Source: a virus. Taken from it: a stretch of DNA of 41,638 nt. The notes under the pieces were generated by a model. The model was not told where the DNA came from and made no database searches. It was given only the letters and a program-made list of their open reading frames with translations. How positions within the stretch are numbered: position 1 is the stretch's first letter; each line of letters starts with the position of its first letter. The stretch is taken from UHGV virus genome UHGV-0109010; one strand, 5' to 3'. The translations under genes were made by a program, and so were the position numbers. Below, piece after piece: positions 967 through 18,302 of the stretch.

Positions 967-2130
967 TTACGCCTTCTTTATATCCTCCATAATTCCAGAG
1001 TGGGACATATTTGGGACATTATCACCAAAAATGTCGTCTATTTTCCTCGCATGCTCTGTCAAATGATTAGGCGCAAGGTGAGCATACCTACGAACCATTT
1101 CTATGGACTCCCATCCGCCCATTTCCTGAAGCACTGATAATGGGACGCCTGACTGAATCAGCCAGCTTGCCCAGGTGTGTCTGAGGTCATGGAAACGGAA
1201 ATCTTCAATTCCTGCACGACGACAAGCTGATAGCCATGATGTCTTGCTGTCGATGCGCATCTTCCTGACCGCAGGCGTTGATGTTCCATCTGCTCGCTTA
1301 GCCGCCTTGGTATGTACAAACACCCATTTGTGATGCTTGCCTATTTGATCACGCAACACTTTACAGGCGGTATCGTTCAGCGCCACACCAATGGCGCGGT
1401 TTGATTTGCTCTCTTCTGGATTCACCCAGGCAACTCGTCGCTGCATGTCGATTTGTTGCCATTCCAGATTTATGATGTTCGACTTTCTCAGACCAGTTGC
1501 CAGCGCAAACTTGACGACAGATTTCAGTGGTTCGGGGCACTCATCAATAAGGCGTTTTGCTTCCTCCTTTTCCAGCCATCTGACTCGCTTGTTTCTGACC
1601 GCTGGTATCTTGATGACAGGCGCTTTTTCCAGCCACTTCCAGTCGCGTTCTGCAGCACGGAGAATGGCCTTTATCATGGCAAGATGCTTTGCCTTTGTCT
1701 GAGTTGATACTGGCTTTGGTTCATAAACAGGCAGTTCTTTACCTTTCCTGATGGCGGCCTGAACTTTCTGTTTCCATATTTCTTTCGTCTTTCTGTTATG
1801 CATTCTGCTTACAGCAGAGTAAATCTTTGCCTCCGAGATATCTTTAAGCCTTATACCCTCAAAATGTTCAAGCCAGAACTCAATCCGGCTTTTATCTGAA
1901 TCGAGAGATTTTTTATCAGCTTTTTCCTCAAGCCATCTTAGGCAGGCCTCTTCAAAAGTGACATCAGGTAAATCCCCTAGCTTTTCTACTCGCCAGAGTT
2001 CTGCTTTTCGCTTGTCGTGCAACTCCTGAGCTTGCCGCTTGTCCTTTGTGCCAAGAGATTCCTTAATTCGTTTCCCGCCCGGGAGCGAATACGAGGCATA
2101 CCATATTTCATTTCTGCGGAAGAGTGACAT
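967..2130 (-). CDS. intD: Tyrosine site-specific integrase (DLP12 IntD-like, 387 aa)
   Basis: ORF translation has lambda-family N-terminal arm-binding region and C-terminal catalytic motifs ([15 protein letters not shown]); adjacent to argU as in E. coli K-12 DLP12. Confidence 0.9.
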
Positions 2131-2971: not shown

Positions 2972-3154
2972 TCATCGTTCCTTAAAGACGCCGTTTAACA
3001 TGCCGATCGCCAGGCTTAAATGAGTTGGTGTGAATCCCATCAGCGTTACCGTTTCGCGGTGCTTCTTCAGTACGCTACGGCAAATGTCATCGACGTTTTT
3101 ATCCGGAAACTGCTGTCTGGCTTTTTTTGATTTCAGAATTAGCCTGACGGGCAA
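2972..3154 (-). CDS. Small hypothetical protein (lambda orf61-position homolog)
   Basis: 60-aa ORF in conserved position relative to exo; recollection of lambda orf61 only approximate. Confidence 0.4.
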   Translation of the reverse strand: MPVRLILKSKKARQQFPDKNVDDICRSVLKKHRETVTLMGFTPTHLSLAIGMLNGVFKER

Positions 3155-3264
3155 TGCTGCGAAGGGCGTTTTCTTGCTGAGGTGTCATTAAACAAGCCCC
3201 ATGTCGGCAAGCATAAGCACACAGAATATGAAGCCCGCTGCCAGAAAAATGCATTCAGTGGTTG

Positions 3265-3617: not shown

Positions 3618-4288
3618 TGCTCCCCAAATACAAAACCAATTTCAGCCAGTGCCTCGTCCATTTTTTCGATGAACTCCGGCACCATCTCGTCAAAACTCGC
3701 CATGTACTTTTCATCCCGCTCAACCACGACATAATGCAGTCCTTCACGCTTCATACGCGGGTCATAGTTGGCAAAGTACCAGGCATCTTTTCGTGTCACC
3801 CACATGCTGTACTGCACCTGGGCCATGTAAGCCGACTTTATGGCCTCGAAACCACCGAGCCGGAACTTCATGAAATCCCGGGAGGTAAACGGGCATTTCA
3901 GCTCAAGGCCATTGCCGTCACTGCATAAACCATCGGGAGAGCAGGCGGTGCGCATACTTTCGTCGCGATAGATGATCGGGGATTCAGTAACATTCACGCC
4001 GGAAGTGAATTCAAACAGAGTTCTGGCGTCGTTCTCGTACTGTTTTCCCCATGCCAGCGCCTTAGCATTAACTTCCGGAGCCACACCGGTGCAAACCTCA
4101 GCCAGCAGGGTGTGGAAGTAGGACATTTTCATGTCAGGCCACTTCTTTCCTGAGCGGGGCTTGGCTATCACGTTGTGAACTTCTGAAGCGGTGATGACGC
4201 CGAGCCGTAATTTGTGCCATGCATCATCCCCCTGTTCGACAGCTCTCACGTCGATCCCGGTACGCTGCAGGATAATGTCCGGTGTCAT
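3608..4288 (-). CDS. exo: Lambda Red exonuclease (Exo, Red-alpha), 226 aa
   Basis: Translation [43 protein letters not shown]... is essentially lambda Exo as I recall it. Confidence 0.95.
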
Positions 4289-5075: not shown

Positions 5076-5372
5076 TTATACCTCTGAATCAATATCAACC
5101 TGGTGGTGAGCAATGGTTTCAACCATGTACCGGATGTGTTCTGCCATGCGCTCCTGAAACTCAACATCGTCATCAAACGCACGGGTAATGGCTTTTTTGC
5201 TGGCCCCGTGGCGTTGTAAATGATCGATGCAGAGTGATTCAAACAGGTGCTGGGGCAGACCTTTTTCCATGTCGTCTGCCAGTTCTGCCTCTTTCTCTTC
5301 ACGGGCGAGCTGCTGGTAGTGACGCGCCCAGCTCTGAGCCTCAAGACGATCCTGAATGTAATAAGCGTTCAT
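5076..5372 (-). CDS. gam: Gam, RecBCD inhibitor (98-aa short form)
   Basis: Translation [44 protein letters not shown]... matches lambda GamS. Confidence 0.93.
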
Positions 5373-5448
5373 GGCTGAACTCCTGAAAATGGCTGTGAAA
5401 ATATCGCCCGCGAAATGCCAGGCTGATTAGGAAAACAGGAAAGGGGGG

Positions 5449-5655
5449 TTAGTGATTCAGGCCGTTACCGCGTCCGTCGAGAAAAACTTCCACGAGCAAA
5501 TCACTGGTATAAGTGCGCTCGATGCCGCGATGCAGATAAAGCCGTCCGCGTAAATTAGCTGATGCAGTCCAGGTACCATCTTTGTGTTTGACCAGCATTC
5601 CTGGCATGACCGCGCCGCGATTAACGGTCTGTGTTCCGTAATGTTGATGAACCAT
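5449..5655 (-). CDS. kil: Kil-family host cell-division inhibitor (68 aa)
   Basis: Motifs HxHxGT, TxSAN and VFLDGRG resemble Rac KilR as recalled; SD GGAG 9 nt upstream; first gene downstream of pL. Confidence 0.55.
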   Translation of the reverse strand: MVHQHYGTQTVNRGAVMPGMLVKHKDGTWTASANLRGRLYLHRGIERTYTSDLLVEVFLDGRGNGLNH

Positions 5656-5931
5656 AAAAACTCCGCCCGTAAGCTGGGCTGCTGAACATATAGAGACTTC
5701 TGCGCATATTCAGGCGGTGGATGGCCGCCGGTTGTCATAACTAAGCCGCCTCGTTGAAGCGACTGAGGTATGAAATGTTGAGTTAATTTCAGCTGGTCAC
5801 ACCGACGTTCACGCGTCCGTTTCACCCCTCGCACTCCCCGAAGCCTGCTGAAATTCAAACTGCGGATCTAAGCGGTCATCGCAACGGTGAATCAGGTAGT
5901 TGCCGTATCGTTGTGTTGTTGCGATGAACTT

Positions 5932-5960
5932 ATTTAAAACTATAGTTGTTTTATCGTCAA
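5932..5960 (-). promoter_or_regulatory. pL-like early leftward promoter (minus strand: -35 TTGACG, 17-nt spacer, -10 TTAAAT)
   Basis: Hexamers read on minus strand; architecture and sequence closely mirror pR (TTGACT-17-TAATCT). Confidence 0.55.
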
Positions 5961-5990
5961 CAACAAAAGTTGTTTTATTGGTTGTTTTAG
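5944..5990. promoter_or_regulatory. OL operator cluster: overlapping GTTGTT/AACAAC inverted repeats
   Basis: Palindromes GTTGTT-N8-AACAAC and AACAAC-AAAA-GTTGTT share half-site with OR (ATGGTTGTT...AACAACCAT). Confidence 0.55.
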
Positions 5991-6099
5991 ATATAACTGG
6001 TTGTATTTAGGATGGATTTATTTTGTGACTTGAATCGCATAGCGATAACTGAAGCGAGGTTATGGTGGTTTTTTTAACGGTGTGTGTGATGAGGGGAGG

Positions 6100-6135
6100 G
6101 CAAAAGAAAACCCGGCACGGTGACCGGGATTCTTA
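6100..6135 (-). terminator. Rho-independent terminator downstream of cI (minus strand)
   Basis: Minus strand reads CCCGG-TCACCGTG-CCGGG followed by TTTTCTTTT. Confidence 0.55.
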
Positions 6136-6249
6136 CGCCGTTAGGTAAAGATATTATTGCGGTGGCTTAATATTACTACCTAGAGCAAAGATAGGAATTA
6201 GTTCTTTACTGAATGAGCACAATGCCCAGTTGATAATTTTTAATTGGTA

Positions 6250-6939
6250 CTACCCATGCTTCCTATATGTCTGCGGCATGCTCCCAATAACCTTACCGAA
6301 GATGAACACCCGGTTCATCTCGTCTTTCTCGATCGGGTCCCACGGTGAGTAGCTTTTGTTATCAGAGATGACCAGCAGCTTATCCTTCATCATTTGCAGG
6401 CGCTTTACATGGGCTGTGTCGTCGTACAGAAACGCATAGATACCATCACCGTCGAAAGATTTAACTGTGATATCAACGAACAGCAGATCACCTGGTTCGA
6501 TCGTTCCTGACATGCTGTCACCACGCACGTTAATGATGCGGATATTTTCCGCCTTCCTACCATCGAACATGTGACGAGCATCGTCAAACGAGTACTCAAC
6601 CGAGCGTAGAACTTCTACAAACTCACGGTTGATGACTCCCGGCCCAGCACTGACTTCTATATCAAGAACGTCAATCTTGAAGTATTTGGAATGGCTGACA
6701 GTTGATTGTATTGGTTGCACTGTACTGTCTGACATATTTCCAACGCCAGAAGATAACCATTCTGCGCGCACACCCAAAGCGTTCGCGATCTCCACGATTT
6801 TAGTTGTTTGATTAGCTTTCCCTGTTTCGATTTTCTGAATAGCAGCCTGGCTAACCCCGACCAAATCCCCAAGCGCCTTTTGTGTAAGGCCTCGCGCTAA
6901 TCTGGCTTCTTTAAGTCTTTCTGAGAGTGTTGTTTTCAT
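6250..6939 (-). CDS. cI: CI-type prophage repressor, XRE HTH + S24 LexA-like autopeptidase (229 aa from MKTTLSERL...)
   Basis: N-terminal HTH (LTQKALGDLVGVSQAAIQKIE), C-terminal S24 motifs (GDSM...KRL); divergent from cro across operator region. Confidence 0.85.
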   Translation of the reverse strand: MKTTLSERLKEARLARGLTQKALGDLVGVSQAAIQKIETGKANQTTKIVEIANALGVRAEWLSSGVGNMSDSTVQPIQSTVSHSKYFKIDVLDIEVSAGPGVINREFVEVLRSVEYSFDDARHMFDGRKAENIRIINVRGDSMSGTIEPGDLLFVDITVKSFDGDGIYAFLYDDTAHVKRLQMMKDKLLVISDNKSYSPWDPIEKDEMNRVFIFGKVIGSMPQTYRKHG

Positions 6940-6980
6940 AGTCCAAATGTACAACCAAGGTTTTATTCCATCAAACGAAA

Positions 6981-7016
6981 ATGGTTGTTGACTAAAAACA
7001 ACCATAGTTTTAATCT
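6981..7016 (+). promoter_or_regulatory. OR operator palindrome ATGGTTGTT-N7-AACAACCAT overlapping pR (-35 TTGACT 6988-6993, -10 TAATCT 7011-7016)
   Basis: Perfect 9-bp inverted repeat overlapping a near-consensus promoter 28 nt upstream of cro ATG. Confidence 0.7.
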
Positions 7017-7043
7017 TGATTCAAATTAACCACGGAGGTTGTT

Positions 7044-7274
7044 ATGAACCCAGCTATCAAAACAGCGATCAATATCGTTGGTTCACAAAAGAAACTGGGC
7101 GCTGCTTGCGAAGTTTCACAGCAGGCCGTCTATAAGTGGCTTCACAACAAAGCAAAGGTATCCCCTGAACATGTCGGCAGCATTGTTACGGCTACTGGTG
7201 GAGTAGTGAAGGCATACCAGATTCGCCCGGATCTTCCGAAGTTGTTTCCACACACCGAAAAGAACGCAGCTTAA
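7044..7274 (+). CDS. cro: Cro-like HTH regulator (YdaS-like family)
   Basis: 76 aa, SD GGAGG, HTH segment (SQQAVYKWLHNKAKVS); first gene from pR divergent to cI. Confidence 0.75.
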   Translation: MNPAIKTAINIVGSQKKLGAACEVSQQAVYKWLHNKAKVSPEHVGSIVTATGGVVKAYQIRPDLPKLFPHTEKNAA

Positions 7275-7343
7275 ATTTCCATTTCACGCTCTTTAACAAT
7301 AAGCAATCAACTTAACAGTCAATTCAAACTAAAGGAGTCAATT

Positions 7344-7883
7344 ATGCAACCACTTCCATACCAACAGACTAGCGGATTTAGCCCGACTGCGGTGATAAAT
7401 CGTTCTCAAACAAAACAGGTGCCAGGCCACGAAAAAATCCGTGATGCCGTCCGCGCCTGGTCGGCTGTAGATAATCAGGATGTCGTTGCCACACTCATTG
7501 TGAATGAGTATCGGGAGCAGGGCGGCGGCACCATCGATTTCCCTGATGATGTCAGCCGTGCACGCCAGAAGCTGTTCCGCTTCCTCGATAACAAATTCGA
7601 TTCTGAAAAATACCGAAATAACGTGCGTGAACTGACCCCGGCAATTCTGGCGGTACTACCGCTGGAATATCGCGGTTACCTGGTTGAGCAGGATAGCTTC
7701 ATGGCCAGGTTGGCTGAAATGGAAAAGGAACTCAGTGAGGCAAAACAGGCTGTCATTCTCAACGCACCACGCCACCAGAAACTGAAGGAAATTAGTGAAG
7801 GTATTGTATCGATGTTTCGTGTGGACCCAGATCTGGCTGGTCCATTGATGGCGATGGTTACTACCATGCTGGGGGCGATATGA
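7344..7883 (+). CDS. YdaT-family protein in the CII position (putative lysis-lysogeny regulator)
   Basis: 179 aa, SD AAGGAG; position between cro and O; resemblance to Rac YdaT recalled, not verified. Confidence 0.45.
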   Translation: MQPLPYQQTSGFSPTAVINRSQTKQVPGHEKIRDAVRAWSAVDNQDVVATLIVNEYREQGGGTIDFPDDVSRARQKLFRFLDNKFDSEKYRNNVRELTPAILAVLPLEYRGYLVEQDSFMARLAEMEKELSEAKQAVILNAPRHQKLKEISEGIVSMFRVDPDLAGPLMAMVTTMLGAI

Positions 7884-7969: not shown

Positions 7970-8899
7970 ATGGCAAACACTGCTGAGATATTCAATTTTC
8001 CAGTGCCGGATGCGGCACAAAAGGAGCCGCGCGTGGCAGATCTCGATGATGGTTATACGCGCATTGCAAATGAGTTGCTGGAAGCTGTGATGCTGGCCGG
8101 ATTAACACAGCACCAGCTTCTGGTCTTCCTGGCTGTCATGCGCAAAACATATGGCTTTAATAAAAAACTGGATTGGGTGAGCAACGAGCAACTGTCCGGA
8201 TTGACCGGGATATTACCGCACAAGTGTTCTGCTGCAAAAAGTGTTCTGGTAAAGCGTGGGATTTTGATTCAGAGCGGGCGGAATATCGGTATTAATAATG
8301 TGGTCAGTGAATGGTCAACATTACCCGAATCAGGTAAGAAAAATAAAGTTTACCTGAAAGAGGTAAATTTACCTGAATCAGGTAAGAAAAGTTTACCCAA
8401 ATCAGGTAAAGGCGTTTACCCGAATCAGGTAAACACAAAAGACAAACTAACAAAAGACAATATAAAACCTTTTTCGTCCGAGAATTCTGGCGAATCCTCT
8501 GACCAACCAGAAAACGATCTTCCTGTGGTGAAACCAGATGCTGCAATTCAGAGCGGCAGCAAGTGGGGGACAGCAGAAGACCTGACCGCCGCAGAGTGGA
8601 TGTTTGACATGGTGAAGACCATCGCACCATCAGCCAGAAAACCGAATTTTGCAGGGTGGGCTAACGATATCCGCCTGATGCGTGAACGTGACGGACGTAA
8701 CCACCGCGACATGTGCGTGCTTTTCCGCTGGGCATGCCAGGACAACTTCTGGTCCGGTAACGTGCTAAGTCCGGCCAAACTCCGCGACAAGTGGACCCAA
8801 CTCGAAATCAACCGTAACAAGCAACAGGCAGGCATGATAGCCAGCAAACCAAAACTCGACCTGACAAACACTGACTGGATTTACGGGGTGGATTTATGA
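7970..8899 (+). CDS. O: Replication initiator O (lambda O-like; alternative in-frame start at 7880)
   Basis: N-terminus MANTAEIFNFPV...VADLDDGYTRIANELLEA...TQHQLLVFLAVMRKTYGFNK parallels lambda O; iterons inside gene; GGAGG SD before 7970. Confidence 0.85.
   Translation: MANTAEIFNFPVPDAAQKEPRVADLDDGYTRIANELLEAVMLAGLTQHQLLVFLAVMRKTYGFNKKLDWVSNEQLSGLTGILPHKCSAAKSVLVKRGILIQSGRNIGINNVVSEWSTLPESGKKNKVYLKEVNLPESGKKSLPKSGKGVYPNQVNTKDKLTKDNIKPFSSENSGESSDQPENDLPVVKPDAAIQSGSKWGTAEDLTAAEWMFDMVKTIAPSARKPNFAGWANDIRLMRERDGRNHRDMCVLFRWACQDNFWSGNVLSPAKLRDKWTQLEINRNKQQAGMIASKPKLDLTNTDWIYGVDL
8321..8476. repeat. Origin of replication: five ~18-bp iterons (TTACCYGAATCAGGTAAR) followed by AT-rich region
   Basis: Direct repeats at 8321, 8350, 8368, 8393, 8415 each with internal dyad TTACC...GGTAA, then A-rich tract; same layout as lambda ori within O. 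Confidence 0.8.
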
Positions 8900-9896: not shown

Positions 9897-9963
9897 TGAA
9901 ACAGGTGAGTTGAGTTCAAACTGTAGTACAATTCTCTCCAGTTTGAACAGGAAAGAATATTCT

Positions 9964-10296
9964 ATGAACCCTTATATTTATCTTGGTGGTGCAATACTTG
10001 CAGAGGTCATTGGTACAACCTTAATGAAGTTTTCAGAAGGTTTTACACGGTTATGGCCATCTGTTGGTACAATTATTTGTTATTGTGCATCATTCTGGTT
10101 ATTAGCTCAGACGCTGGCTTATATTCCTACAGGGATTGCTTATGCTATCTGGTCAGGAGTCGGTATTGTCCTGATTAGCTTACTGTCATGGGGACTTTTC
10201 GGCCAACGGCTGGACCTGCCAGCCATTATAGGCATGATGTTGATTTGTGCCGGTGTGTTGGTTATTAATTTATTGTCACGAAGCACACCACATTAA
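9964..10296 (+). CDS. emrE: SMR-family multidrug efflux transporter EmrE (110 aa from MNPYIYL...)
   Basis: Translation MNPYIYLGGAILAEVIGTTLMKFSEGFTRLWPSVGTIICYCASFWLLAQTLAYIPTGIAYAIWSGVGIV matches E. coli EmrE. Confidence 0.92.
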   Translation: MNPYIYLGGAILAEVIGTTLMKFSEGFTRLWPSVGTIICYCASFWLLAQTLAYIPTGIAYAIWSGVGIVLISLLSWGLFGQRLDLPAIIGMMLICAGVLVINLLSRSTPH

Positions 10297-10327
10297 AAAT
10301 AATTTGTTTCTAAACGACTAAAATATG

Positions 10328-10362
10328 GAGGCTCTTATATTTATATGAGCCTCGTTTTATGC
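10328..10362 (+). terminator. Rho-independent terminator after emrE
   Basis: GAGGCTC-loop-GAGCCTC stem followed by GTTTTATGCTTTTT. Confidence 0.55.
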
Positions 10363-10552
10363 TTTTTGTTAATGTCTTTATTTTTTTATGTATTCTTTTG
10401 TGCTTTCAAGATTATGGCGTAAGAAAATTGCAATACGATTATTGTTGTATATTCAAGATAATGTGACCTTAATTGTCTTTTTAAATAAAAATTAAACAAA
10501 AATTATATCCCACCACTAAGGTTTATAAAAGCATACGTTAGCAGGTGTCACC

Positions 10553-12079
10553 ATGAAAAAAGCCATAGCATATATGCGATTTTCATCACCAGGTCAGATG
10601 TCTGGCGACTCATTAAACCGACAGAGAAGACTTATTGCTGAATGGTTAAAGGTAAATAGTGATTATTATCTTGATACCATAACATATGAAGATTTAGGAT
10701 TAAGTGCATTCAAAGGAAAGCATGCACAATCAGGAGCTTTTTCGGAATTTTTAGATGCTATAGAGCATGGTTATATATTGCCAGGAACTACATTGTTAGT
10801 TGAAAGTCTGGACAGACTTTCAAGAGAAAAAGTCGGTGAAGCGATTGAACGTCTGAAATTGATTTTGAATCACGGTATTGATGTTATAACTCTTTGCGAC
10901 AATACAGTCTATAATATTGACTCTTTGAATGAGCCATATTCATTAATAAAAGCCATACTTATAGCACAAAGGGCAAATGAAGAAAGCGAGATAAAGTCAA
11001 GTCGGGTTAAATTATCATGGAAGAAAAAACGGCAGGATGCACTGGAATCAGGTACGATTATGACGGCGTCTTGTCCGAGATGGCTCTCCTTAGATGACAA
11101 AAGAACGGCTTTTGTTCCAGACCCCGACAGGGTGAAAACTATTGAGCTAATTTTTAAACTCAGGATGGAAAGGCGCTCATTGAATGCAATAGCCAAGTAT
11201 TTAAATGATCATGCTGTAAAGAATTTCTCAGGAAAAGAAAGTGCATGGGGACCTTCTGTAATTGAAAAATTATTAGCGAATAAAGCTCTGATAGGTATAT
11301 GCGTACCTTCATATCGTGCAAGAGGTAAAGGAATAAGTGAAATCGCTGGCTATTATCCCAGAGTCATATCAGATGATTTGTTTTACGCTGTACAGGAAAT
11401 TCGGTTGGCACCTTTTGGTATTAGCAATAGTAGCAAAAATCCTATGTTGATAAATCTACTTCGAACAGTTATGAAGTGCGAGGCTTGTGGTAATACCATG
11501 ATTGTTCATGCGGTATCTGGAAGTTTGCATGGCTATTATGTTTGTCCGATGAGAAGACTGCATCGATGTGACAGGCCATCAATAAAGAGAGATTTGGTTG
11601 ATTATAATATCATTAATGAGTTGCTTTTTAATTGTAGTAAAATCCAACCAGTTGAAAACAAGAAAGATGCTAATGAAACTTTAGAGTTGAAAATTATTGA
11701 GCTCCAGATGAAAATTAATAATTTAATTGCTGCATTATCTGTTGCGCCTGAAGTTACCGCTATAGCAGAAAAAATCAGAGTATTAGATAAGGAATTACGA
11801 AGGGCTTCTGTATCATTAAAAACTTTGAAGAGTAAAGCGGTGAGTTCACTTGGTGATTTTCATGCTATTGACTTAACCAGTAAAAATGGGCGAGAGCTAT
11901 GTCGTACACTTGCCTATAAAACATTCGAAAAAATCATAATCAATACAGATAATAAAACCTGTGATATCTATTTTATGAATGGCATTGTTTTTAAACACTA
12001 TCCTTTAATGAAAACAATATCCGCCCAGCAGGCGATAAGTACTCTCAAATATATGGTTGATGGTGAGGTTTATTTTTGA
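10553..12079 (+). CDS. ybcK: Large serine recombinase (resolvase domain + recombinase domain + zinc ribbon; YbcK-like, 508 aa)
   Basis: N-terminal resolvase-type motif (AIAYMRFSSPGQ...SLNRQ), Cys cluster CEACGN...CPMRRLHRC, C-terminal coiled coil; AT-rich codon usage; same position as ybcK in DLP12. Confidence 0.8.
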   Translation: MKKAIAYMRFSSPGQMSGDSLNRQRRLIAEWLKVNSDYYLDTITYEDLGLSAFKGKHAQSGAFSEFLDAIEHGYILPGTTLLVESLDRLSREKVGEAIERLKLILNHGIDVITLCDNTVYNIDSLNEPYSLIKAILIAQRANEESEIKSSRVKLSWKKKRQDALESGTIMTASCPRWLSLDDKRTAFVPDPDRVKTIELIFKLRMERRSLNAIAKYLNDHAVKNFSGKESAWGPSVIEKLLANKALIGICVPSYRARGKGISEIAGYYPRVISDDLFYAVQEIRLAPFGISNSSKNPMLINLLRTVMKCEACGNTMIVHAVSGSLHGYYVCPMRRLHRCDRPSIKRDLVDYNIINELLFNCSKIQPVENKKDANETLELKIIELQMKINNLIAALSVAPEVTAIAEKIRVLDKELRRASVSLKTLKSKAVSSLGDFHAIDLTSKNGRELCRTLAYKTFEKIIINTDNKTCDIYFMNGIVFKHYPLMKTISAQQAISTLKYMVDGEVYF

Positions 12080-14924: not shown

Positions 14925-15009
14925 AGTCAGAGATAACAATCAACTAATACTGTTTCGTTGATTTTTGCTTGTAATTGGCGTTCTGGTCTGATTTTTGTGG
15001 AGTAAGTTG

Positions 15010-15387
15010 ATGCGTGATATTCAGATGGTTCTTGAGCGTTGGGGAGCGTGGGCGGCTAATAATCATGAAGATGTGACCTGGTCGTCCATTGCCGCCGGTT
15101 TTAAGGGATTAATTACTTCAAAAGTAAAATCTCGCCCACAATGTTGTGACGATGACGCGATGATCATTTGCGGGTGCATGGCCCGTCTGAAAAAGAACAA
15201 CAGCGATTTGCATGATTTATTGGTGGACTATTATGTCGGCGGCATGACTTTTATGGCGCTTGCACGTAAGCATGGGCGATCTGATTGTTGGGTTGGCAGG
15301 ATGCTTCAGAAAGCTGAGGGCGTAGTGGAGGGTATGCTGATGGTGTTGGATCTCCGATTGGAGATGGATGCTGATTGTTCGAAATAA
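15010..15387 (+). CDS. quuD: Late-gene antiterminator Q (phage 82 / QuuD type)
   Basis: Translation [34 protein letters not shown]...[18 protein letters not shown] matches DLP12 QuuD. Confidence 0.88.
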
Positions 15388-15485: not shown

Positions 15486-15515
15486 AGCCAGCCTCCCCAA
15501 AGGCTGGTTTTTTTC
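15486..15515 (+). terminator. Rho-independent terminator, probable tR' ending the short pR' transcript
   Basis: CCAGCCT-CCCCAA-AGGCTGG followed by TTTTTTT, about 100 nt downstream of Q stop. Confidence 0.65.
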
Positions 15516-15542: not shown

Positions 15543-16067
15543 TTATTGTTTAACCCATAATAATTCATTGACATTGAATCCCAACTTTTGAGCGGTTCGC
15601 ACATAGTCTGCTTTTACTTTATCTGGAATAGTTGGGGTCCTTGCCAGAATCCATAGGTATTCTCTGTTCGGACCACTGACAAGAGCATACTTATACTCAT
15701 CATCCAGTTTGATTACATTATAGCCACCATAGAAGGGGCCAAAAAACGAAACCTTCAATGCTGCAGTTTTAGTATCTCCAGTAAAGTATGCTTTACCTTC
15801 GCTCTCGCTCCATTTATTTTTCGTTGGATCGTATCCACGGTTAAGTACACGAATCCCTCCGTCGTTCCGTTTTCCATAAGTAGCGCTGACCTGTTCCAGA
15901 CCACGTTCGAACCGGTTCTCGAGGCGAGCTATTTCATACCATTTTCCGAGGTAGCGGTTGGCGTCAAAATTTGTAATCGGCTGCACACCTTTAGGTGGTG
16001 TCGGGGCCTTACATGCTATAAGAGTGAAAGAGAGTGCAATGCCAGTCAACACAGGCCATAACTTCAT
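15543..16067 (-). CDS. Outer-membrane lipocalin lipoprotein (Blc-like), lipobox LIAC
   Basis: Signal peptide with lipobox; motifs NFDxxRYLGxWYEIAR and KVSFFGPFYGGYNVI parallel E. coli Blc but the sequence is diverged. Confidence 0.8.
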   Translation of the reverse strand: MKLWPVLTGIALSFTLIACKAPTPPKGVQPITNFDANRYLGKWYEIARLENRFERGLEQVSATYGKRNDGGIRVLNRGYDPTKNKWSESEGKAYFTGDTKTAALKVSFFGPFYGGYNVIKLDDEYKYALVSGPNREYLWILARTPTIPDKVKADYVRTAQKLGFNVNELLWVKQ

Positions 16068-16259
16068 AATAAATCCTGTACTTTTGATAGTTGAGAGTAA
16101 GTATGAAAGATAGATGATTACGACCGATCACTTAAAGAACTTTCATACTATATTAGGAATAGTCCATAACAGAAAAATTGTCAGTGATGACGCCAGAAAG
16201 GCAATTTATTCCGTGCACTACACAGTTTATGTGTTAATGAATTAGTCAAGGGGGAGAAT

Positions 16260-17219
16260 ATGATAAAAAAACCTGTGATTGGAATCAGCGGTTGTTTGGC
16301 CGGTTCTGCTGTTCGTTTTGATGGTGGTCACAAAAGAGCTGACTTTTTAATGGACAAATTAGTGGAATGGGTAACATTCAGACCAGTATGTCCGGAAATG
16401 GCTATAGGGCTGCCAGTTCCGCGTCCTGCTCTACGTCTTGTGCGCTCGACGCAAGGAAATATACGGATGTGTTTCAGCCACGACCAGAATGAGGATGTGA
16501 CAGAGAGAATGACAGAGTTTAGTCGTTCTTATATGGACAAATTAAAGGATGTATCGGGGTTTGTGGTTTGTGCTAAATCTCCCAGCTGTGGCATGGAGCG
16601 CGTGCGTGTCTATGATGAAAATGGTAATCGAGGTCGTAAAGATGGAGTGGGACTATTTACGAGCACTTTGATGGAAAAGTTTTCCTGGCTACCGGTTGAA
16701 GAGGATGGGCGATTACATGATCCAGTGCTTCGTGAGAATTTTGTTGAAAGAGTTTTTGCTTTGCATGAGCTCAATCACCTTTACAAGGAGAAATTATCAA
16801 GAAGAGAGTTATTAGCTTTTCATAGTCGTTATAAGCTTCAGTTGTTGGCGCATAGTCAGGCAGGCTATAAAGATATGGGACCATTTGTGGCTGCAATACA
16901 CGAGTGGGCGGACCTTGAATCATACTTTGAGGTGTATCGTGATAAGCTGATGGCGATTCTCAGAAAACCTGCATCACGTAAAAATCACACGAATGTGCTG
17001 ATGCATATACAGGGGTATTTTAGTAACTACTTAAGTACACGCCAGCGTAAAGAGTTGAGCGAGGTTATACTTAACTATCGTTCTGGCACATTACCTCTTC
17101 TTGCGCCGTTGACTCTGCTGAAGCATTATCTGGGTGAGTATCCTAATGATTACTTGCTTACACAGAATTACTTCGATCCCTATCCGGACGAACTGGCTCT
17201 AAGACTGATGGTAAATTAA
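16260..17219 (+). CDS. DUF523 (TudS-like Fe-S desulfidase) / DUF1722 fusion protein, YbgA/RudS-like
   Basis: N-terminal GISGCLAG...RPVCPEM...CAKSPSCG Cys pattern typical of DUF523; longer C-terminal helical domain; family assignment from memory. Confidence 0.6.
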   Translation: MIKKPVIGISGCLAGSAVRFDGGHKRADFLMDKLVEWVTFRPVCPEMAIGLPVPRPALRLVRSTQGNIRMCFSHDQNEDVTERMTEFSRSYMDKLKDVSGFVVCAKSPSCGMERVRVYDENGNRGRKDGVGLFTSTLMEKFSWLPVEEDGRLHDPVLRENFVERVFALHELNHLYKEKLSRRELLAFHSRYKLQLLAHSQAGYKDMGPFVAAIHEWADLESYFEVYRDKLMAILRKPASRKNHTNVLMHIQGYFSNYLSTRQRKELSEVILNYRSGTLPLLAPLTLLKHYLGEYPNDYLLTQNYFDPYPDELALRLMVN

Positions 17220-17561
17220 TTGTATGCGATATCATCCAAAAGGATGAGTTCCTGCATGCAGGATATTTACAATCGTAAAAACTACACTATGATACCCAGA
17301 GTGTCAGTTTGTATAAAAACTCTGTTTACGCTGAAGAAACAATTGAGATGCAACTTAAAGTTAGTAAACATGCCAGTCAAAATATATAATATTATGATTC
17401 CACGCAGCTATATATAATATAACAGATTGGTTTAATAATTTGTCTTTGTGAGTTAAATACATAATTTTATACTTGTGATGCAATGAAATTTTCCTTATTG
17501 TTGAACTGGCGAATATTGATTTTCCACCTATACTTACCTGGTGTAACCCCAATGATATCAG

Positions 17562-18302
17562 GTGGATAATATGCTATACATATGTTCTATCATTTTGGTG
17601 TTGAACTCGTTTGATGTCCGAATTGGTAAAGAAGATATTTTGTTTAAAAAAGGAAGTGCTGTTCTCATTGATTACAATTTAAAAGATTTTTTTTCATCAA
17701 ATATAGATCATGTAATGATCGTAGATGTTGAAGAAAAAACAGTTAATGATTTCTTTAAAAGCAACACACTCTCACCTTTTTCTGTAAGAAGGTTTTATCC
17801 GGCATACTTGATGGTGGAATGTGAAGATTTTTCATTGTTAAAGAACTTGATTGCATGCTTGAATTGTGATGGCAGAACTGTGGATTTTGTTAGAAATCAA
17901 ATATCACTTGCATGTCTTGCTATCTTATCTTCAGAGAAAATAGTGCAAAGTTTTTTATTTGGATGTCTTAATAGTTTAGGAAGTAAAGTTAAGGCTATTA
18001 TTCACACGGATATATCTGCAGCATGGAGACTTTGTGATATATCTTCAAGACTGTATCTGAGTGAAAGTCTGTTAAAAAGAAAATTAAAGCACGAAGGCTT
18101 ATCATTTAGTAAGTTAATTCTTGAAGAGCGAATGGTGATGGCGGAAAGGTTATTAAGCTACAATTTATATTCTGTTGGAAAAGTTGCTGAGATATGCAGT
18201 TATGAAAACACGTCATATTTTGTAAGTGTTTTCAGAAGGTATTTTGGTGTTCCTCCCCATCAATATTCATCAAGATTTTTTTTAGAAAAAGACATGATGT
18301 AA
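17562..18302 (+). CDS. AraC/XylS-family transcriptional regulator, AppY/EnvY-like (alternative ATG start at 17571)
   Basis: C-terminal double-HTH AraC signature (KVAEICSYENTSYFVSVFRRYFGVPPHQY); N-terminus resembles AppY; AT-rich gene and upstream region. Confidence 0.8.
   Translation: MDNMLYICSIILVLNSFDVRIGKEDILFKKGSAVLIDYNLKDFFSSNIDHVMIVDVEEKTVNDFFKSNTLSPFSVRRFYPAYLMVECEDFSLLKNLIACLNCDGRTVDFVRNQISLACLAILSSEKIVQSFLFGCLNSLGSKVKAIIHTDISAAWRLCDISSRLYLSESLLKRKLKHEGLSFSKLILEERMVMAERLLSYNLYSVGKVAEICSYENTSYFVSVFRRYFGVPPHQYSSRFFLEKDMM

Follow-up and report, generated by a model that had tools for sequence, protein, structure and literature searches.

The timing of early gene expression in phage lambda follows the textbook logic of N-dependent antitermination, to which the cis-acting put RNA of HK022 is the one well-studied exception. 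HK022 and HK639 are lambdoid phages devoid of N that carry put just downstream of the leftward promoter pL, and read-through at put is factor-independent and requires the zinc-binding domain in the beta-prime subunit of RNA polymerase (PMC9378689). The sole remark on N-less lambdoid phages returned by our literature search concerns phage LLS, which has no N and "may" use put (PMC12315714). Here we analysed the virus genome UHGV-0109010, a stretch of 41,638 nt (hereafter, the window) that represents a lambdoid prophage inserted beside a tRNA gene (875-948), and focused on the untranslated leader of about 270 nt that separates pL from kil, the first gene of the pL operon. Unlike HK022 and HK639, this prophage contains neither N nor put.

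The early-left region of the clade to which the window belongs lacks the whole N/nutL/tL1 cassette as well as put, and in this member the slot that holds rexAB in lambda is empty. Sequence comparisons further point to a composite leader, in which a clade-specific 5' part of about 150 nt, termed X, is followed by a structured module that recurs throughout the lambdoid phages. The elements of this region are:

6986-7014, plus strand: pR promoter, near-identical to pL
5932-5960, minus strand: putative pL promoter, with a -35 TTGACG (5960-5955), a 17-bp spacer and a -10 TTAAAT (5937-5932)
5776-5925, minus strand: X, the clade-specific part of the leader, about 150 nt
5735-5773, minus strand: P1, a long irregular hairpin, UCAUA-C-CU-C-AGUCGCUUC[AAC]GAGGCGGCU-U-AG-U-UAUGA
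5713-5729, minus strand: P2, a hairpin, GGCGG-CCAUCCA-CCGCC, with the linker ACAACC (5734-5730), which does not vary, in front of it
5694-5705, minus strand: conserved single-stranded box GCGCAGAAGUCU, from alignments
5665-5679, minus strand: P4, a small hairpin of the minimum free energy fold, GCCC-AGCUUAC-GGGC, followed by the kil Shine-Dalgarno sequence GGAG (5664-5661)
5449-5655, minus strand: kil, 68 aa with its ATG at 5655, an FtsZ-inhibitor family protein (phrog_294, E=2e-37)

An earlier reading of this DNA, made from the letters alone (the sequence-only reading), had described pL and pR as divergent and near-identical, and reading both directly bears this out: pL reads TTGACGATAAAACAACTATAGTTTTAAAT on the minus strand and pR reads TTGACTAAAAACAACCATAGTTTTAATC on the plus strand (from 6986), with a common layout of TTGAC(G/T)-(A)TAAAACAAC-(T/C)ATAGTTTTAA embedded in AACAAC/GTTGTT operator half-sites (OL, at about 5940-6010, in the case of pL). 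Neither promoter was listed by a simple consensus scan, because the -10 hexamers are weak. We infer that the pL transcript starts near 5925, since the spacing fits and since this is the very point from which phages of different immunity are homologous. A promoter-like site on the plus strand (TTGCGA-16-TATAGT, 5919-5946) is directed from the leader start into OL, antisense to cI and toward its 3' end.

Between 5925 and 5656 the pL strand contains only two open reading frames (ORFs) of at least 20 aa, one of 28 aa and one of 133 aa that starts with TTG, overlaps kil out of frame and was judged spurious (5457-5858, minus strand). None of the pL- and pR-operon ORFs tested matched an N family in PHROGs, the sole antiterminator match being a Q-like protein. 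The absence of an N-like ORF between pL and kil, proposed in the sequence-only reading, is therefore upheld by the lack of a family match and of conservation among the leader ORFs; the TTG-start ORF that it had pointed out exists and is not conserved. In addition, we found no boxA within two mismatches in 5656-5925, no tL1-like terminator in the same interval, and, on reading the sequence, no boxB-type short G-C stem with a GNRA-like pentaloop in the pL leader.

We searched for put with a covariance model (R2) built on HK022 putL and putR and HK639 putL, whose own members score 72-100 bits. Nothing was detected in the leader, and the best match in the window (13.9 bits, E=0.22) fell inside gene O; when the first 150 nt of the leader were aligned locally with a put-bearing leader or with putL, the similarity was likewise at chance level (p about 0.25-0.46). 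As a matter of homology, the HK022 put-like RNA entertained in the sequence-only reading thus found no counterpart here. The same model recovered new put RNAs at 91-95 bits in three other sequences, at 6154-6230 (+) of L016, 8488-8564 (-) of L019 and 3999-4075 (-) of L009. In L016 and L019, which are metagenomic, put lies directly between pL and the P1-P2 hairpins, with no gene or terminator between them, and X occupies the corresponding slot of the window at a similar length (150 vs 144 nt), a correspondence of position only.

The other half of the region, between OL and cI, holds little:

6011-6249, minus strand: empty cargo slot between the cI stop and OL, containing only the cI terminator
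6111-6128, minus strand (stem 6128-6111, U-run to about 6101): cI terminator, -13.5 kcal/mol

No rexAB-like gene and no ORF over 28 aa was found in the 240 bp between OL and the cI stop, in agreement with the sequence-only reading, which had seen no rexAB equivalent there. Lambda rexAB lies in the same position, on the cI transcript. Sister phages, unlike the window, carry two-gene toxin-antitoxin or defence-like pairs in it, namely GevT/GevA, an ASCH gene with a hypothetical gene, a HipA-like pair and two hypothetical genes (cargo coordinates: L001 3736-5164, L003 3731-5147, L127 4304-5877, L128 4740-6094). Judged by these comparisons, the stretch is a rexAB-type slot, empty in this member and a cargo hotspot among its sisters.

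The 3' part of the leader is where structure and conservation concentrate. The sequence-only reading had spoken of about 270 nt of structured leader; the length holds, and structure is found in P1 and in the 3' 131 nt (z=-2.5 vs shuffled sequences), but the 276-nt leader as a whole folds no better than shuffled (z=-0.25). P1 is predicted at -16.3 kcal/mol (z=-4.8), and its pairing is kept in 97.5% of cells over 29 distinct sequences, as compared with 30-50% in slid controls. Seven of its pairs are altered on both sides, with a covariation score above that of all 500 shuffles, and RNAalifold independently predicts the P1 helix. The functional strand of P1 is the pL transcript, because its many G-U pairs would turn into C-A if the opposite strand were transcribed.

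P2, the hairpin that the sequence-only reading had spotted (GGCGG-CCATCCA-CCGCC), is present on the pL strand at 5729-5713. Taken alone it is thermodynamically ordinary (-8.9 kcal/mol, z=-1.9; 13/200 shuffles fold as well), and it is conservation, not folding energy, that sets it above chance. An exact 26-mer across P2 occurs in at least 120 IMG/VR contigs, and a 21-mer in 16 species-representative genomes, mostly of Enterobacter, plus Citrobacter and Scandinavium. P2 is nearly invariant: two relaxed scans yielded only six contigs, each with a single uncompensated change, and in the variant of Salmonella phage S9-5 the stem is kept through a G-U pair. This conservation is independent of reading frame, the frame in CobraSix being shifted relative to the AUG in P1, and the constraint acts on the RNA sequence itself. 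The single-stranded box, GCGCAGAAGUCU(UGUAUUAACCGUUC), is likewise read in different frames in different phages, which implies conservation at the nucleotide level. The linker after P2 varies in length and sequence, and RNAalifold predicted no conserved P3 pairing within it; P4 is weakly supported by a G-C stem of 3-4 bp at the same place in four sequence types.

From these comparisons the general anatomy of the module can be given as a P1 that has CAUA/UAUG as its closing pairs, a middle stem that varies and an apical stem, UUY...GAG, that is conserved, followed by ACAACC, P2, the variable linker, the box, P4, the Shine-Dalgarno sequence and the ATG of the first gene. A covariance model built on P1-P2 (R1) detected a single copy in the window (5711-5774, 90.6 bits, E=4e-22) and none downstream of pR. 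A search of the window against Rfam yielded only a tRNA at gathering thresholds; within 5300-7500 there were only chance-level hits at E up to 10, with no family at the module position even at that threshold, and a text search of the literature for the P2 sequence found no paper. Structured, partly invariant and absent from Rfam, the P1-P2 module is a candidate new RNA family.

We also considered a leader peptide, MTTGGHPPP, starting from the AUG inside P1. Some linker variants hold its frame to a common stop, and the indel in S9-5 is of 3 nt and in frame. This candidate was rejected: its frame is lost in CobraSix and in several linker variants, the frame of the box differs between phages, most of the rare P2 variants are non-synonymous, and a Shine-Dalgarno sequence at a suitable place is missing.

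The module has a life outside this clade. By BLAST, about 80 nt (5684-5775) are also kept in phages of Klebsiella and Enterobacter that show no other relationship to the window in this region, and the gene that follows varies, with 26 different N-termini. Nearly all copies outside E. coli, when read by eye, start 0-12 nt after a hairpin and U-run. The module thus marks the start of the delayed-early left genes in other phages, directly behind tL1; in the window and its clade no terminator precedes it, and 150 nt of leader stand there instead. In phi80 the complete P1-P2-box-P4 module, with one P2 base different, lies directly behind nutL/N and tL1A, which is annotated as an intrinsic terminator, and is followed by tL1B, annotated as Rho-dependent, and by kil; where phi80 has N and tL1A, the window has 150 nt of unrelated leader. 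HK225 also has the module upstream of kil. In HK639 it follows an annotated putL-like RNA, two ORFs and a terminator, and this phage has the first 20 nt of the leader, the P1-P2 module and a YdaT-type cII in common with the window. The module therefore coexists with both known early antiterminators, N in phi80 and put in HK639, and cannot be what replaces N. In some copies (L026, L082, L110 and L195 3524-3552) the linker after P2 is a U-run, which would make P2 an intrinsic terminator; P2 with a U-run is annotated as such in HK639, and the window has UGAAUAUGCG in its place.

The comparison with lambda itself is instructive for P1. Gene order is the same in both (cI, OL/pL, kil, gam, bet, exo, orf60a/63/61, xis, int), whereas the window lacks lambda's nutL, N, tL1, ral, sieB, ea10 and cIII, and the kil genes belong to different families (68 aa, phrog_294, in the window; 47 aa in lambda). 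Lambda contains a P1 (CAUACCAAUAACGCUUCACUCGAGGCGUUUUUCGUUAUG; R1: 14.2 bits, E=0.013) just ahead of the cIII Shine-Dalgarno sequence and after a terminator-like hairpin with which ea10 ends; lambda lacks the P2 and boxes that follow P1 in the window. Thus, P1 in lambda leads at once to the Shine-Dalgarno sequence and cIII, whereas in the window it leads to P2, the boxes and kil, with no cIII-like ORF. The P1 of HK022 (20.2 bits) has a terminator before it and, at the position of lambda cIII, a short ORF after it (MMHFQLAGSG...). By sequence and position, P1 is homologous to the stem-loop that stands immediately before cIII in lambda and before the corresponding ORF in HK022. Expression of cIII is stimulated by RNase III (PMC9032294 and PMC5371410, which cite Altuvia et al. 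1987 and 1991). The termination cluster tL2, reportedly described by Luk and Szybalski, presumably includes the lambda copy.

X, the remaining part of the leader, is confined to 16 E. coli phage records, at 95-100% identity, which is no higher than that of the adjacent genes. It opens with a small 5'-terminal hairpin motif, UCGNAACNAANCANCGA, and further hairpins are predicted from AUCGCAAC/GUUGCGAU and GAAUUUCAGCAGG/CCAGCUGAAAUU. X is conserved from about +1 across at least three immunity types, and varies too little among relatives for a covariation test; the window holds no second copy of it, nor a copy of any leader part on the pR side. The first 20 nt of the pL leader are common to HK639, KO-TP1 and ENT1. 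The UCGNAACNAANCANCGA motif (5906-5925, minus strand), a small hairpin with a CA-rich loop, recurs in phages of differing immunity and antiterminator type (L195 at about 2275-2295, L005, L006 and L003). Within X, the DNA at 5888-5898 holds TGAATCAGGTA, an 11-mer that also makes up the core of the iterons for the O protein in the origin (8327-8431), a coincidence at chance level (E about 2).

Whether the early genes need an antiterminator depends on what obstructs the polymerase, and the following sites were considered; terminator calls cover intrinsic sites, Rho-dependent ones not being predictable.

5423-5406, minus strand: weak terminator-like site between kil and gam
3547-3525, minus strand: hairpin within an ORF, strong but followed by a poor U tract
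2951-2933, minus strand (feature 2925-2951): canonical intrinsic terminator, stem followed by UUUUUUAUUG, -10.2 kcal/mol, z=-3.1
7287-7299, plus strand: boxA, consensus CGCUCUUUAACAA, at the nutR position, 13 nt after the cro stop

The first three are the only sites found by the terminator scan on the path of pL, and the canonical one is located between the orf61-like gene and the group of the DksA-like gene, xis and int. Since there is no canonical terminator between pL and exo, and no convincing intrinsic terminator between pR and Q, polymerase should, by sequence, be able to reach the kil, gam, bet, exo, replication and nin genes with no antiterminator. For xis and int to be expressed, transcripts from pL would have to pass 2933, or a further promoter would have to serve them. 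The sequence-only reading had offered that antitermination may not be needed leftward, and had named a lack of downstream terminators requiring it as a refuting condition; the former agrees with the anatomy for kil-gam-bet-exo but does not hold entirely for the left operon, in which a canonical terminator is found at 2951-2933. On the right, boxA (CGCTCTTTAACAA) is the only exact 12-mer match in the window, and no boxB hairpin follows it in 7300-7343, before the cII-like start. Its occurrence is restricted to this cro type, the sister immunity type of 4A7 lacking it, so that it cannot be the general solution of the clade; all six of its matches are 100% identical and thus have no comparative power. 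It may have been left over from a nutR, or may serve as an independent Nus-factor site.

Taken together, we favour, with a probability of roughly 55%, a reading in which the N/nut/tL1 cassette is absent, kil-gam-bet-exo are read directly from pL, and the module is an element acting at the level of the mRNA rather than an antiterminator. With the cassette missing, pL is joined almost directly to the module, so that transcription should extend through kil, gam, bet and exo with no antiterminator and make them immediate-early genes. P1 would serve as a processing or stability hairpin, for which its homologue at the cIII leader offers a precedent: lambda cIII expression depends on RNase III, whose site we take to be this very hairpin upstream of cIII. 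P2 and the conserved boxes, in turn, would form a sequence-specific host-factor site and set the translation context of the first gene. Because of its position and of the cIII precedent, the module is probably an mRNA processing, stability or translation leader. The sequences show the anatomy, the homology, the covariation, the lack of N and put in the window and the co-occurrence of the module with either of them elsewhere; we infer the transcription start, the dispensability of antitermination and the molecular role of P1 and P2.

Several points weigh against this reading. The pL start and read-through of the leader are deduced from the sequence, and the cited papers on RNase III and cIII go no further than a stimulation of expression. 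An untranslated leader of 270 nt is a natural target for Rho, and the terminator at 2951-2933 would sever xis and int from pL unless the polymerase were let through. The perfect boxA after cro hints that a Nus-factor-based modification may still operate rightward. Finally, a processing or stability role leaves the extreme constancy of P2 unexplained.

The alternatives differ in the part of the leader to which they assign a function. It is unlikely, in our estimate, that the leader contains a new cis-acting RNA that works on the transcription complex, be it X as a replacement for put, by which the polymerase would pass the terminator ahead of xis and int, or P2 with ACAACC as a site for polymerase or for a host elongation or processing factor, which would then be a binding site common to hundreds of enterobacterial prophages regardless of antiterminator type. 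The version in which X is a non-homologous antiterminator doing the job of put, modifying the polymerase to pass 2951-2933 and any Rho-dependent sites, seems to us slightly less likely still. It draws on the true put RNAs in the same slot of L016 and L019 (94.5 and 91.2 bits; leaders of comparable length), on the conservation of X from its first nucleotide across immunity types, on the HK639 record, which annotates put on the left only and so provides a precedent for a left-only element, and on the real terminator downstream; yet X resembles put neither in sequence nor by the model, belongs to a leader that as a whole folds no better than shuffled, shows too little variation to reveal covariation, and is no more conserved than its neighbouring genes, and contig L037 seems to carry the module without put, N or X in the 420 nt shown upstream. 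That P1-P2 itself works like put, its two hairpins binding the elongating polymerase and preventing it from pausing or terminating, is improbable. Two adjacent stem-loops over about 64 nt have the size and layout of put, the invariance of P2 and its linker is what a specific binding surface would be expected to show, and the position, 150 nt downstream of pL in an N-less phage, would be suitable. Nevertheless, the module stands beside N in phi80 and beside put in HK639, L016 and L019, it lies downstream of the first terminator in most phages and so cannot serve to pass it, HK022 and lambda keep only P1, the module shows no similarity to put by model, and some P2 variants with a U-run are annotated as terminators.

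The leader may also act against expression rather than for it, as a Rho-dependent attenuator or insulator that keeps the toxic kil silent against stray transcription, such as read-through from pRM past the cI terminator, and that would be overridden by high-rate transcription from pL on induction. We regard this, too, as unlikely. In the Rac prophage, Rho and NusG silence kilR (PMC5793797), as was reportedly described by Cardinale et al. 2008; the window leader is untranslated, has kil as the first gene behind it, and contains more C than G in its first 80 nt and last 130 nt (C/G 1.2-1.7). Its middle is G-rich, however, the P1 and P2 hairpins fall inside the C-rich part, rut sites are not predictable, and neither the invariance of P2 nor the covariation in P1 would be explained. 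The same Rac gene provides the model for a different and decidedly improbable idea, in which the leader gives rise to a small regulatory RNA: KilS is an annotated, northern-verified small RNA from a kil 5' untranslated region (PMC8175672). Both loci thus have a non-coding RNA feature in a prophage kil leader, but KilS ends at its own terminator, whereas the window leader has no intrinsic terminator to release a short RNA. Homology to KilS was rejected, as R1 has no sense-strand match in the kilR region. The best match there, at 5443-5506 (+) of the K-12 Rac sequence L201, is weak (9.4 bits, E=0.17; ...GUUAUUUACAACCGGAGGCGCACUCCCACC), antisense to KilS and upstream of sieB, and may be due to chance. 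Least likely of all, and in our view very much so, is a cryptic N encoded by the TTG ORF or by a shorter peptide from it. The N-terminus of this ORF has an arginine-rich stretch, GVKRTRERRCDQ, recalling QTRRRERRAEKQ of lambda N, and 3/5 common polymorphisms in the stretch fall at third codon positions. This count is not significant (about p=0.2), and the arginine codons stem from a CG-rich palindromic hairpin, ACGCGUGAACGU. Moreover, the ORF has no Pfam match and a PHROG match only at E=0.11, its TTG has no Shine-Dalgarno sequence, its C-terminal two thirds are kil read out of frame, and neither side shows a boxB-like hairpin; its frame is broken in relatives, three of which carry a 5-nt insertion and another a 2-nt deletion, and is not kept over P1-P2 in other genera. 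The lack of a family match together with these frame-breaking indels led us to reject the 133-aa ORF as N.

A clade with neither N nor put, which includes sequenced phage isolates, offers a natural test: either a lambdoid early programme can proceed without processive antitermination, or a third, unrecognised mechanism exists. The module, in addition, ties the old observations on the lambda cIII leader and RNase III to a much wider set of phages.

The clade is common in E. coli. The 594-bp region from the kil start to the cI stop has matches in 2225/5426 complete E. coli genomes (~40%), of which 1428 extend over at least 80% of its length. By BLAST, the identity of 5400-7300 to sequenced phages reaches 99.8% for Turner and 99.5% for PhiR34_1, and close relatives such as PhiR34_1 (stated host MG1655), Turner and 4A7 are deposited as phage genomes. 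The genes surrounding the region are:

967-2130, minus strand: int
left operon, minus strand, in the order int, excisionase, DksA-like gene, orf61/63/60a-like genes, exo, bet, gam, kil
6250-6939, minus strand: cI repressor, 229 aa, ATG at 6939 (phrog_4, E=9e-73)
7044-7274, plus strand: cro
7344-7883, plus strand: YdaT-type cII
downstream of cII, plus strand: O, P, ren, several morons, then ninB, ninE, rusA and the Q-like gene
14995-15387, plus strand: Q-like gene (phrog_79), with its own terminator at 15486-15509

The cI annotation is also present in the relatives PhiR47_2 and PhiR34_1, and the kil reading frame is kept in Klebsiella phage KO-TP1. GenBank ORFs across the leader of sister phages vary in length (L001 3049-3435, L127 3589-3879, L002 3057-3290), and two of these three are named 'Kil'; calls that run over P1-P2 look like artefacts, the conserved kil being the 68-aa frame. 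The orf61-like gene (phrog_303; 2972-3254, minus strand) is divided between two overlapping ORFs, of which 3099-3254 corresponds to profile positions 1-46 and 2972-3154 to positions 42-93, a split that suggests a frameshift. Within and after the nin region (9910-12079 and 15543-18302), the morons include genes for an SMR/QacE-like efflux protein and for a large serine recombinase, together with an oppositely oriented lipocalin-like gene and a 246-aa ORF at 17562-18302.

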